Assembly: GCA_045660045.1 (NCBI GenBank)
Contig: JAZRDB010000012.1
Span: forward strand, 55,869-119,868
Direction: 5' to 3'
Source: Alphaproteobacteria bacterium
Lineage (GTDB): Bacteria > Pseudomonadota > Alphaproteobacteria > CAAHEQ01 > UBA3637
DNA length: 64,000 nt
In this document: one piece after another, positions 45,430 through 47,548 of the stretch
Position numbering within the stretch: the first letter of the stretch is position 1
How the letters are laid out: every line of letters begins with the position of its first letter
Notes under the pieces: model-generated
What the model was told of the DNA's origin: nothing
The model's database searches: none
Seen by the model: only the letters and a program-made list of their open reading frames with translations
Program-made: the position numbers and the translations under genes

Positions 45430-46437
45430 TTATTTTAATCCAACTGCCTTCCGACAAAGCGATTTAAAAATGGGCGTATTCAATTTCATATTTTGAATCA
45501 TTAAGGCCACTGGTTCGTCTAATGCTATCTTTTCCCATTTTTCCACATCCTTTTTGAGACATCGGACCTCGGCACTGGGCAATTCACTTTGGCCAATACA
45601 GGACGATAAATATACATAGCACTCATCATTATCGTTCAAATACTTTTTAGCCAACGCTCGCGCCACATAATTTAAAGTGACATCTGCCTTGGTGGCATCC
45701 TTTCCCCACGGGCTCCCGCCCCCAACCGCACACGCTGTAGAATAAAAATCACAGGCTAATTTTCGCCCTGTTACACCACAATCAGCCACCGCACCGTGTG
45801 TGGTATAACGCCCTGTTCCATTGATAATCAACTTCTTGGGTGCTTGTCCCAAAACATCCAGTGCATCTATTATGCCGTCACATGGGCAACGCATTGGAAT
45901 CGCTATAATCGCGGTGGTAATTTGCCCCGCTTCATCCAAAGCAATCTGAGTCTTGATATCCAAGCCAAAACGGTTATCCTGCAACGCCGTTTCATACAAT
46001 GCGGCATTTAATTTTCGAGCTAGGTAAAGTTCTGACGGCAACGCCTCCTCTCCCTTACACGCATAGCCCACAAACACGCCTTGATCGCCCCAACCGTTCG
46101 CCACCACACCTTGCCCAATATCTGCAGATTGCGCCCCAATCATGTTTAAAACGCTCAATTTATCGGGGTTAATACAATTGTCGCCCCATGCCTGACTATA
46201 CTCCCGTGTATAGCCGATATCAGCATACGCCTTTTTCGCCACTTGAATCAGGTCTGGCATTTCAATTTTCCCAGACACTTCACCCGCAAAAATGACCGTA
46301 TTATCTTTCACCATCACTTCAACGGCATAGCGGACCCACGGGTCCTGCCTTAATAATTCATCCAACAAATAACTTGAGATATAATCGGCTGTTTTATCCG
46401 GGTGGCCGATAGACACCGCCTCTGCTGTTTTAAGCAT
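45430..46437 (-). CDS. divergent, short S-adenosylmethionine synthetase (MetK)-like protein (335 aa)
   Basis: Retains AVSIGHPDK, GWGDQGVFVGYA, DIKTQI, DCGVTGRKL.CDFY, GGGSPWGKD..KAD. It is about 50 aa shorter than E. coli MetK and many signature residues are changed. Confidence 0.7.
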   Translation of the reverse strand: MLKTAEAVSIGHPDKTADYISSYLLDELLRQDPWVRYAVEVMVKDNTVIFAGEVSGKIEMPDLIQVAKKAYADIGYTREYSQAWGDNCINPDKLSVLNMIGAQSADIGQGVVANGWGDQGVFVGYACKGEEALPSELYLARKLNAALYETALQDNRFGLDIKTQIALDEAGQITTAIIAIPMRCPCDGIIDALDVLGQAPKKLIINGTGRYTTHGAVADCGVTGRKLACDFYSTACAVGGGSPWGKDATKADVTLNYVARALAKKYLNDNDECYVYLSSCIGQSELPSAEVRCLKKDVEKWEKIALDEPVALMIQNMKLNTPIFKSLCRKAVGLK

Positions 46438-46457
46438 AGCTTTTTCTCCTTGTTTAG

Positions 46458-46557
46458 TCCATTGACGTAGGACAAGTTAGGTTAAATCCACGGTCGCCAC
46501 TCACCCGAGCGGAACGAGCACATTGTATCACACGCAAAAATGAAATGCAATAAAAAA
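46458..46557 (-). repeat. ~100-bp direct repeat copy A (promoter + structured leader of the MetK-like gene)
   Basis: Differs from 47146-47246 by 3 substitutions and one A-run length change (hand alignment). Confidence 0.9.
46522..46550 (-). promoter_or_regulatory. promoter inside repeat A (TTGCAT-N17-TACAAT, minus strand)
   Basis: Hexamers on the reverse complement, 84 nt upstream of ATG 46437. Confidence 0.5.
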
Positions 46558-46585
46558 TTTCTCCCGCTCATCAAGCAGGAGAAAT
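46551..46585 (-). terminator. terminator of gene 46600-47133
   Basis: AUUUCUCC / GGAGAAAU 8-bp stem with a 13-nt loop, then UUUUUA on the minus strand. Confidence 0.55.
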
Positions 46586-46599
46586 AAAAAAAACGTTTT

Positions 46600-47133
46600 T
46601 TAGTTTCTCAAGTCTTTTCCCCTTAAACGCATTGGATGTTTAACCAGAAGAGCGGAAATCCTTGCGCGCAATCCTGTGCGTTTCACTGGCTTATAATCCG
46701 GCTGACGCTTATTATAGTCAAAAGCTGTTTGTAATTTACCATGTCCATCGTACAAGAATGCCATGTTTTTCCGACCATCATTTACGTAGACGCTCAGCAA
46801 TTCACCCTTTGCATTAAATTCTTTAATCGTAGCTTTAATCTCACGATGCTCGCTATCATATTCAGTCTCAATGATTCGCATCTTGCCTTCAGCATCCTTA
46901 TCAATGCGCTGCTTTCCATTCCATTCTTGGGATTGAATAACTTTTCCCTTCGCGTCGTAACGCGTATAAGACTGTCCAATTCCATTTTTATCGTAAAGAT
47001 CTACAGTTTTTCCATACTCATTTATTACGGTAACTTGAAAAGAACCATCTCTAAAACGTTCAGTAATTTTTGTCACACCGTCGCTTGTGTATTCATCTCT
47101 TTTTATAACTTCATTAGCTGCCATTGTTTTCAT
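46600..47133 (-). CDS. small YD/RHS-repeat-like protein (177 aa)
   Basis: Repeated Y/F-x-YD-x-x-G-like units (DLYDKNGIGQSYTRYDAKGKVI, FLYDGHGKLQTAFDY, EFNAKGELLSVYV); RBS AAAGGAG. Confidence 0.6.
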   Translation of the reverse strand: MKTMAANEVIKRDEYTSDGVTKITERFRDGSFQVTVINEYGKTVDLYDKNGIGQSYTRYDAKGKVIQSQEWNGKQRIDKDAEGKMRIIETEYDSEHREIKATIKEFNAKGELLSVYVNDGRKNMAFLYDGHGKLQTAFDYNKRQPDYKPVKRTGLRARISALLVKHPMRLRGKDLRN

Positions 47134-47145
47134 CTCCTTTTCAAC

Positions 47146-47246
47146 TCCATTGACCTAGGACAAGTTAGGTTAAATCCACGGTCGCCACTCACCCGAGCGA
47201 AACGAGCACATTGTATCACACGCAAAAATGAAATGCAACAAAAAAA
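47146..47246 (-). repeat. ~100-bp direct repeat copy B (promoter + leader of the YD-like gene)
   Basis: See copy A. The promoter hexamers are at 47210-47215 and 47233-47238. Confidence 0.9.
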
Positions 47247-47249
47247 TAC

Positions 47250-47278
47250 TTGCATTTTTTTCTTCTCTGACATATCAT
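47250..47278 (+). promoter_or_regulatory. ferredoxin promoter (TTGCAT-N17-TATCAT), back-to-back with repeat B
   Basis: Hexamers at 47250-47255 and 47273-47278. Confidence 0.45.
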
Positions 47279-47311
47279 TAGTTTCGTTCAATTTTTAAAA
47301 AGGAGAAAAAT

Positions 47312-47548
47312 ATGCCTTCAGTAGTAAATGATTCATGTGTTTTGTGTGGCGCTTGCGCCGAAGTTTGCCCAGTGGGTGCTTTCCACAAAGGTGAAACACA
47401 AATGGTTGTTGATCCAAATACTTGCATTGATTGCGGTGTTTGCTTGGGTGAATGCCCTCAGGGTGCGATTAAGTCCTCTGACGAGGCAGATGAGAAGTGG
47501 GTTCAATATAATGCGGAAAATGCCGCAAAATTCCCACCTGCAAAATAA
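47312..47548 (+). CDS. 2[4Fe-4S] ferredoxin
   Basis: Two CxxCxxCxxxCP motifs (CVLCGACAEVCP, CIDCGVCLGECP); RBS AAAGGAG. Confidence 0.9.
   Translation: MPSVVNDSCVLCGACAEVCPVGAFHKGETQMVVDPNTCIDCGVCLGECPQGAIKSSDEADEKWVQYNAENAAKFPPAK

Follow-up and report, generated by a model that had tools for sequence, protein, structure and literature searches.

Promoter-leader duplication at a metK-like locus of a gut alphaproteobacterium: a probable SAM-II/SAM-V-fold riboswitch and its truncated copy

Does a promoter with a structured leader that occurs twice at one locus place two unrelated neighbouring genes under common control? The question is raised by a direct-repeat pair on the minus strand of a 64-kb stretch of contig JAZRDB010000012.1 from an Alphaproteobacteria bacterium (hereafter the window, meaning the whole stretch that was analysed). 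One copy (copy A) precedes a gene for a MetK-like protein, a homologue of S-adenosylmethionine (SAM) synthetases, and the other (copy B) precedes an open reading frame (ORF) that resembles RHS/YD-repeat proteins. An earlier note, made from the letters alone, had read the pair as the same structured leader delivered to two co-regulated genes, or else as a small mobile regulatory cassette. Our analyses lead to another answer, which we consider likely from the sequence and from analogy with known riboswitches: the unit combines the promoter of metK-like-pheS-pheT with a translational OFF riboswitch of the SAM-II/SAM-V fold, and copy B is its truncated duplicate beside an inserted gene.

A repeat search of the window recovered one direct-repeat family, with 118-nt members at 46445-46562 (copy A) and 47133-47250 (copy B), both on the minus strand, that are 92% identical and spaced by 688 nt. 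Exactly two matches to the 42-nt core pattern were found in the window, compared with none expected from 100 shuffles. According to the repeat search and alignment, copy A comprises a T-run, the promoter, the complete leader and the ribosome-binding site (RBS) of the MetK-like gene, and copy B comprises the T-run, the promoter, a hairpin termed P0 and a truncated aptamer. The pairwise alignment found the two nearly identical from the T-run 5' of the -35 box through ...AAUGGA, with the three substitutions and one run-length change that had been counted before: a difference in T-run length together with an A/G change directly 5' of the -35 box, a C/T substitution at 46512/47200 within P0, and a C/G substitution at 46467/47155. 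The homology ends after GGA (46458/47146), inside the functional RNA and about 6 nt 5' of the RBS, rather than about 20 nt before it as first estimated. Beyond GGA the copies diverge, copy A continuing with GGACUAAACAAGGAG and copy B with GGAGUUGAAAAGGAG.

The promoter boxes TTGCAT-N17-TACAAT were found in both copies as described previously. Promoter A (46522-46550, minus strand), read from the sequence, has its -35 box at 46550-46545 and, after a 17-nt spacer, a TGA-TACAAT extended -10 box at 46527-46522; promoter B (minus strand) has the corresponding boxes at 47238-47233 and 47215-47210, and the TGn extension adjoins the -10 box in both. TGATAYAAT is unchanged among close relatives, and a -10-like hexamer peaks 32-35 nt 5' of GGAUUUA in 115 of 128 family instances. 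Transcription of copy A is predicted to start at about 46516-46514. The leader then opens with P0 (46493-46515, minus strand; GUUCCGCUC-GGGU-GAGUGGCGAC), which adjoins the pseudoknot described below and contains the hairpin CCGCUC-GGGU-GAGUGG, located at 46512-46497 in copy A and present as a U-G variant in copy B (P0 of copy B aligning at 47203-47181, minus strand). The earlier note was right about this hairpin and its variant; P0, which it emphasised, is an accessory 5' stem rather than the heart of the element. Changes in P0 among relatives keep the pairing (G-U to A-U, G-U to G-C and C-G to U-G). A hairpin of this type is present in 93 of 122 distinct instances, 73 of these 93 ending 0-2 nt before the pseudoknot helix P1.

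The aptamer core of copy A (46444-46497, minus strand) scores 75.9 bits with our own covariance model, R1, and its parts were assigned by alignment with the SAM-V riboswitch and by the anatomy published for that class (PMC6061858). Read 5' to 3' on the minus strand, it consists of the P1 5' strand CGUG (46492-46489; P1 in SAM-V), the third strand AUUU (46487-46484; A7, U8, U9 and U10), the linker segment CCU (46481-46479; C14-U15), which is complementary to the Shine-Dalgarno (SD) sequence and sits in a linker of 8 nt, the length found in SAM-V, the P2 5' strand UUGUCC (46475-46470; U19, U20, G21, U22, C23 and C24), the P1 3' strand UACG (46469-46466; P1), the loop UCAAU (46465-46461; L3), the P2 3' strand GGAC-U-AA followed by A (46460-46453; G43-U47, A48, A49 and A50) and the SD sequence AAGGAG (46451-46446; SD). 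Two other pairings were tried and rejected. The P0 loop GGGU could pair with the linker ACCU in some clades, as GGU-type loops occur in about a quarter of the hairpins, but many copies have none, and the CCU-SD pairing was preferred, as in SAM-V; for the GG of GGAUUU with the CC of UUGUCC, the covariation lies instead between the four upstream bases and the loop (P1), without conflict with P2.

More than 120 leaders related to that of copy A were found in Alphaproteobacteria of gut and rumen. Metagenome contigs scanned with a pattern that required exact motifs gave at least 120 matches, and the family is therefore large. Among the 120 matches listed, 71 lie directly before MetK-like genes, approximately 30 before an upstream ORF (uORF) of about 50 codons that overlaps the metK start and approximately 11 before other small genes, and 8 are chance matches. 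Homologues of the MetK-like protein number in the thousands in uncultured gut Alphaproteobacteria; a scan with this protein over one genome per species yielded 63 loci, of which approximately 40 have the same core 5' of the metK-like gene. The family consensus is a variable hairpin, then GYGGAUUUAA(N)CC(N)AACUUGUCC-YRC..-GGACUAAA-(N)AGGAG, 6-8 nt and a start codon. This spacing between SD sequence and start codon holds in 119 of 127 scored instances, within a set of 128 that had been chosen for an SD-like motif. Among close relatives the leader is nearly unchanged from GUUCC onward. In relatives with a metK third-codon identity of just 50-63%, identity reaches 94-98% across the 54-nt core and 69-85% across the part with the promoter and P0. 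R1 detected no divergent copies in loci without the motif, and a search of a phage collection returned just a chance 36-nt match.

Covariation was assessed in two sets, one of 41 leaders found via the protein (A3) and one of 102 R1 matches, 84 of them distinct (A5). In A3, P1 alternates between CG, UA and UG and between CG, UA and GC, with 25 double-change cells compared with 4.0 in shuffles (reached by none of 500) and with 91% of cells paired compared with 36-45% in slid controls. In A5, pair 6-35 of P1 is UA in 26, CG in 24 and GC in 20 sequences, and pair 8-33 is UA in 40, CG in 22 and UG in 22, none being unpaired; double-change cells number 75 against 18.6 in shuffles (again 0 of 500 reach the observed value), and pairing is kept in 92% of cells, slid controls giving 31-49%. 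The P2 strands UUGUCC/GGAC-U-AA are complementary and invariant in 83 of the 84 distinct sequences. The sequence anatomy, the covariation of the pseudoknot, the extreme conservation and the gene association are direct observations, and the earlier claims that each copy brings a promoter and a 5' leader, and that the leader is a cis-acting RNA, are supported.

Comparison with catalogued riboswitches (cmscan, Rfam 15) points to SAM-V (RF01826), the sole Rfam family that aligned at all. A scan of the 6-kb region at E values up to 10 gave nothing relevant; with the leader alone (106-nt query), SAM-V aligned end to end at 18.4 bits (E 0.44), matching AUUU, UUGUNC/GNAC-U-AAA and AAGGAG, and the leader of one relative (L036) reached 25.1 bits (E 0.014). 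Of the three families named for checking beforehand, RF01826 was thus recovered below threshold, while SAM-II (RF00521) and SAM/SAH (RF01727) gave no match, RF00521 not even at E values up to 10 with the 106-nt query. In its crystal structure, SAM-V is an H-type pseudoknot with helix P1 and a third strand, A7-U10, in the major groove of P2; the triple U20:A48.U9 surrounds the sulfonium and is accompanied by U19:A49.U10, U47 pairs with the adenine of SAM, A50 binds the amino-acid end, and C14-U15 pairs with the SD sequence as P2a (PMC6061858). At every one of these contact positions except position 18, the nucleotide of copy A is that of SAM-V. The columns AUUU, UU, U, AA and A are invariant in both A3 and A5 at the level of nucleotide identity, the triples being assigned through the SAM-V mapping. 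The linker CC(U) is complementary to (A)GG of AAGGAG/AGGAG in the copies of both sets, with both sides invariant and hence complementarity without covariation.

The leader thus shares with SAM-V, known from metY of 'Candidatus Pelagibacter ubique' (PMC6061858), the H-type pseudoknot, AUUU, the P2 helix UUGUNC/GNAC-U-AA with its bulged U, the equivalent of A50, the 8-nt linker with C14-U15 opposite the SD sequence, an AAGGAG directly 3' of the aptamer (a translational OFF design) and a distribution in Alphaproteobacteria. It differs in several respects. SAM-V has a P3 hairpin in a loop of about 15-20 nt, whereas the loop after the P1 3' strand here (UCAAU and similar) has just 5-9 nt and leaves no room for a P3 stem; the 5' hairpin P0 adjoining P1 is additional; a C:G pair replaces G23:C44 of SAM-V in P2, a compensatory difference; and position 18 is mostly C. 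Moreover, SAM-V hosts are marine, whereas the bacteria here are from gut and rumen, with a short MetK-like gene as the main target. SAM-II, in its translational metX example, has the same fold and binding mode as SAM-V, is alphaproteobacterial and has no P3, with a 2-bp P2a over the SD sequence (PMC6061858); most of its representatives, in contrast, are transcriptional with a long stable P2a, its consensus differs, and it gave no match to this leader. The SAM/SAH riboswitch, found 5' of metK in Rhodobacterales, is likewise a small H-type pseudoknot that occludes the SD sequence of an alphaproteobacterial metK, but it did not match the leader. Nor is the SAM/SAH class known to have a U-rich triplex signature in the major groove (AUUU ... 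UU/AA), which does not vary in the present family. Literature searches for SAM-V and SAM-II variants and for 'SAM-VII' found no description that matches. The leader therefore appears to be an uncatalogued variant, which has the features of the SAM-II/SAM-V fold but falls short of the Rfam threshold and has no P3.

On this basis, P0 would stack on the pseudoknot helix P1 of 4-5 bp (CGUG with UACG), and the AUUU strand would lie in the major groove of P2 (UUGUCC/GGAC-U-AA), where U:A.U triples would hold SAM. Ligand binding would then let CCU of the linker pair with AGG of the SD sequence, shutting off translation of the SAM-synthetase-like gene. SAM as the ligand, the triplex and the SD occlusion are what we infer by analogy with SAM-V. 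A SAM-responsive element before this gene, raised beforehand as a possibility, has become the best reading, given the sub-threshold SAM-V alignment and the pseudoknot-triplex anatomy with its covariation.

Several observations weigh against this interpretation. SAM-V scores of 18-25 bits are far under the gathering score of 41 bits, so that the membership threshold is failed; a riboswitch gathering score was reached by none of 20 relatives' loci in the Rfam scan, and the L043-type subgroup gave no match at all. Position 18, the partner of A50, is C in copy A and most copies and A in SAM-V (A also occurs in the types represented by L015, L036, L038, L041 and L061). P2 shows no variation, its support being complementarity and the SAM-V analogy rather than covariation, and among the metagenome matches its invariance was partly imposed by the search pattern, a bias that the protein-derived set does not have. 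Single-sequence folding of both leaders was no better than shuffles (z +0.6 to -0.15), a score that is uninformative because the structure is a pseudoknot. The single metatranscriptome contig that speaks for the reading, from sheep gut (151 nt), runs from within metK through the aptamer core, at a depth of 2 that could reflect DNA carry-over. Finally, variant aptamers can switch ligand, as in SAM-I variants that sense spermidine (PMC10853860).

These points bear on a first alternative, in which the pseudoknot RNA is real and senses something other than SAM. Candidates are S-adenosylhomocysteine (SAH), another SAM derivative, and proteins, among them the MetK-like enzyme and PheRS. The sub-threshold Rfam score, the C at position 18, the precedent of SAM-aptamer variants with a new ligand (PMC10853860) and a regulon made up in part of proteins with no known link to SAM would all fit. 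On the other hand, the nucleotides that in SAM-V contact the adenine (U47), the sulfonium (U20:A48.U9) and the amino-acid end (A50) do not vary between copies, and the dominant downstream gene is a SAM-synthetase homologue; we regard a different ligand as unlikely.

If copy A is probably a SAM-type riboswitch, is copy B one as well? The degenerate core of copy B (47132-47185, minus strand) is the same as that of copy A up to GGA (47146) save for UAGG in place of UACG at 47155, and then reads GUUGAAAAGGAG. It carries GGAGUUGA where copy A and the family carry GGACUAAA, so that C46, A48 and A49 of the P2 3' strand are missing, and the sulfonium triple with them. Furthermore, UAGG for UACG breaks the one invariant G-C pair of P1, and copy B is the sole one of the 84 distinct sequences with a non-pair at these positions. 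With R1, it scores 47.7 bits compared with 75.9 bits for copy A, and the model found no further copy in the window. Core B is 89% identical to core A, less than the orthologous cores of far more diverged genomes (94-98%). Five or six of the differences between A and B are packed into eight bases at the 3' end of the core, beside about 100 bases that are nearly identical, and this clustering looks like a recombination junction rather than drift.

The reading in which both copies are working leaders and the same ligand or protein co-regulates the MetK-like and RHS-like genes draws on the promoter, P0, the P1 5' strand, the third strand and the P2 5' strand, which are identical or nearly so in both copies, and on complete covarying copies that precede unrelated small genes elsewhere (L042, L073, L141, L145, L076, L110 and L147). 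It runs against the missing C46, A48 and A49 and the P1 non-pair, a combination unique among the 84, against a score 28 bits lower with the family model, and against the crowding of six A/B differences at the 3' end of the core when the other 105 bp or so differ by three substitutions and one T-run change. We therefore give co-regulation, as proposed in the earlier note, little credence; copy B is cut within the aptamer and has a C-to-G change in the pseudoknot. Besides its promoter and P0, copy B supplies two thirds of an aptamer, whose binding helix is predicted not to form. It is probably a promoter donor that confers no SAM control, with the AAGGAG of the following ORF inferred to be constitutively accessible. 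Promoter strength is probably common to the two genes, and SAM-dependent control probably is not. Tandem SAM-II/SAM-V arrangements (PMC9481103) also have two SAM-type aptamer copies within 700 nt on one strand; here, in contrast, the aptamers do not lie on a single mRNA: the copies have separate promoters and separate genes, with a terminator in between, and one of the two is truncated.

How the duplicate arose was addressed by comparison with close relatives, namely eight contigs representing four distinct loci (L001, L003, L005 and L007) with MetK-like proteins 74-90% identical. In all four loci the promoter-leader is single and lies directly before metK-like-pheS-pheT-infA; among the relatives compared, the window genome alone has it on both sides of a cargo gene. 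In L007 and L008 the spacer between the ferredoxin gene and metK is 184 nt (L007:3817-4000) with no gene inside, and copy B with its upstream flank aligns over the full length of this spacer, whose gene-free form is, as far as sequence comparison can tell, the ancestral state. The same spacer holds a gene for a 219-aa Cys-rich protein with a signal-peptide-like N-terminus in L001 (3045-3900) and three genes (296, 190 and 161 aa) in L005 (1603-3900), both upstream of the single promoter, and rpsD with a rubrerythrin-like gene in L003 (2862-3900). None of the L001 and L005 cargo genes is related to the 177-aa ORF of the window. Different cargo in the same ferredoxin-metK spacer marks it as a recurrent insertion site. 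A short direct repeat, TTTTTTTGTTG, brackets the L001 cargo at the -35 box.

In the simplest scenario, which we propose, an RHS-like cargo (RBS, ORF and terminator) would have landed in the leader after aptamer position 45, and about 105 bp, from the T-run 5' of the -35 box to aptamer position 45, would have been duplicated with the insertion. The outcome would be an intact promoter and riboswitch (copy A) before metK and, before the inserted gene, another promoter followed by an aptamer that is truncated at its 3' end and ligand-blind (copy B). Had the cargo simply inserted, a terminator would have separated metK from its promoter and the riboswitch would have been interrupted; provided that the gene is essential, only the rebuilt product would have been viable. 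The same product could come from a circle that bore the 105-bp segment once and integrated by a Campbell-type event, and the two routes are indistinguishable here.

Varied cargo in the spacer among relatives, and riboswitches before several unrelated small genes in metagenomes, might also suggest a dispersed or mobile repeat of 100 bp, either a repetitive-extragenic-palindrome-like element or a promoter cassette, that came to lie at two neighbouring genes by chance. This explanation is very improbable: there are just two copies in 64 kb, copies are always in sense orientation directly 5' of an RBS and start codon at 6-8 nt spacing, close relatives have a single copy, and neither terminal inverted repeats nor a transposase is present. 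The mobile cassette envisaged before is likewise disfavoured by the four relative loci, single-copy and always before metK, and by the mere two copies in the window.

A further concern is that the duplication is an assembly artefact. The source genome is a metagenome-assembled genome (MAG) from bovine gut, the core is common to many co-occurring strains and could mislead assemblers, and a related contig, L072, breaks within the leader. This contig, from the closest relative of the MetK-like gene (92% identity), ends 33 nt 5' of the start codon (L072:1-33); the break resembles an assembler stop at a repeat or strain-shared core, and the contig is too short to show the duplication status there. 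Bovine-gut contigs from two other sequencing runs, X1 and X5, belong to a different strain (20 differences in 752 nt) and span copy A, the terminator and the ORF, as well as the ORF start with the copy B core, where they show zero differences. As these contigs independently cover both insert junctions, the arrangement is not an assembly artefact, an explanation to which we assign hardly any probability. X1 and X5 also add one point to those that count against our interpretation: in place of the 87 nt at window positions 47183-47269, which comprise P0 and the copy B promoter, they have an unlike sequence of the same length, with agreement persisting in the core of copy B and in the ferredoxin flank. 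The history of the duplication was thus not simple; X1 and X5 could carry an older allele, the two copies of the window strain having since been made alike by gene conversion.

The gene behind copy A (45430-46437, minus strand; 335 aa) is the first of metK-like-pheS-pheT. Its product has the N, M and C domains of Pfam S-AdoMet_synt and aligns over its full length with solved SAM synthetases (4le5, E 1e-40). The inserted ORF (46600-47133, minus strand; 177 aa) has a GC content of 0.39 compared with 0.46 for metK. An ORF does begin at ATG 47133, as first reported; its likely start is the second ATG, at 47124, giving the 174 aa of the public gene call. No Pfam family matched the ORF, and a search of 5.8 billion clustered proteins found no close homologue, just its own 174-aa gene call. 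An exhaustive HMMER search gave 28 weak matches, in multiple stretches, all to proteins that range from hundreds to several thousand residues and mostly exceed 1100 aa; all three of the matches checked against Pfam (the two best and P0128) contain RHS repeats, and the ORF aligns repeatedly along the best match. The ORF thus appears to be a stand-alone RHS/YD-repeat-like orphan, in keeping with the initial description of a YD-like gene behind copy B. It was found in none of the RNA sequencing runs. Its putative intrinsic terminator (46557-46585, minus strand) has a 13-bp stem, a loop of 3 and a T-run that merges with the 5' edge of copy A. On the other side of copy B lies a divergent ferredoxin gene (47312-47548, plus strand; from the ORF list, with Fer4 Pfam matches for the syntenic gene in relatives). 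At 47233-47300, an inverted repeat AAATGCAA-N11-TTGCATTT 5' of copy B forms two back-to-back -35 boxes, the minus-strand TTGCAT-N17-TACAAT serving the leader and a plus-strand promoter-like TTGCAT-N17-TATCAT serving the ferredoxin gene; its left arm is kept in L001, L005 and L007.

Elsewhere in the clade, complete covarying copies with their own promoters precede genes other than metK, namely an approximately 150-aa family (L073, L141, L145, L182, L175 and L092), an approximately 110-aa family (L076 and L110) and an ankyrin-repeat protein (L147). When the ~150-aa family was fetched by protein identity (two proteins, four places), the riboswitch was found 5 nt upstream at 62.9-72.8 bits with R1. 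It lies directly upstream everywhere examined (L141:737-1195; L193:4001-4462; L195:4001-4459; and, on the minus strand, L073:6028-6501 and L145:5436-5873), and the proteins conserve the motifs PxxD, GLYVGG and PLSGxN. The family has no Pfam or PHROG match and no name in its sources, and its AlphaFold model, with a predicted local distance difference test (pLDDT) score of 87, has no PDB match at E <0.1. In MAG SIG45 (L042), two complete, diverged copies occur at L042:1290-1345 and L042:2940-2995, the first before a 99-aa orphan ORF followed by a reverse-strand 413-aa gene and the second before the metK-like gene; they resemble leaders of different lineages, which suggests a mosaic formed by recombination. 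Riboswitch copies before accessory genes thus appear to be a recurring theme in the clade, from which copy B of the window differs by its truncation.

Leaders of metK-like genes themselves vary. In a subgroup comprising L031:2323-2480, L048:213-370 and approximately 30 metagenome loci (e.g., L113, L119 and L094), the riboswitch precedes a uORF of 45-58 codons that overlaps the metK start out of frame, and a hairpin CCUUUGGUU...AACCAAAGG covers the metK SD sequence; this looks like a translational-coupling relay from the riboswitch to metK. Other leaders, of MetK-like genes from the same protein family (L011:2880-3000, L025:2880-3000, L012-14, L023, L028-29, L035, L049, L059, L063 and L070) have no such riboswitch. 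The L011/L025 type has two GC-rich hairpins, each with a U-run after it, gave no meaningful Rfam match and no R1 match, and may be a different attenuator or riboswitch.

The family provides the putative main SAM-sensing element of an uncultured clade of gut and rumen Alphaproteobacteria ('Candidatus Enterousia' type MAGs) that Rfam-based annotation has missed. With it, the SAM-II/SAM-V fold would gain a further habitat and a further architecture; the family also offers natural sequence variation for the pseudoknot and ties two unknown protein families to a SAM-type switch. The duplication indicates that insertion in the leader of an essential gene can be tolerated, the promoter and riboswitch being doubled, and a foreign gene would in this way inherit a strong promoter with a disabled sensor; near-identical leaders need not mean co-regulation, since the endpoint of the homology decides. 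Further-reaching, and put forward only tentatively, is the possibility that the family is a separate riboswitch class on the SAM-II/SAM-V scaffold (with P0, no P3 and C at position 18), with a regulon beyond metK and with the core and promoter acting as a recurrent gene-capture site. If so, the regulon would include at least two families of unknown small proteins (~150 aa and ~110 aa), which would be unrecognised players in the SAM or methyl metabolism of gut Alphaproteobacteria unless the ligand of the variant has shifted, and the near-invariant core with its promoter would be a landing and capture site for strain-specific genes, of which the window would be a case caught in the act.

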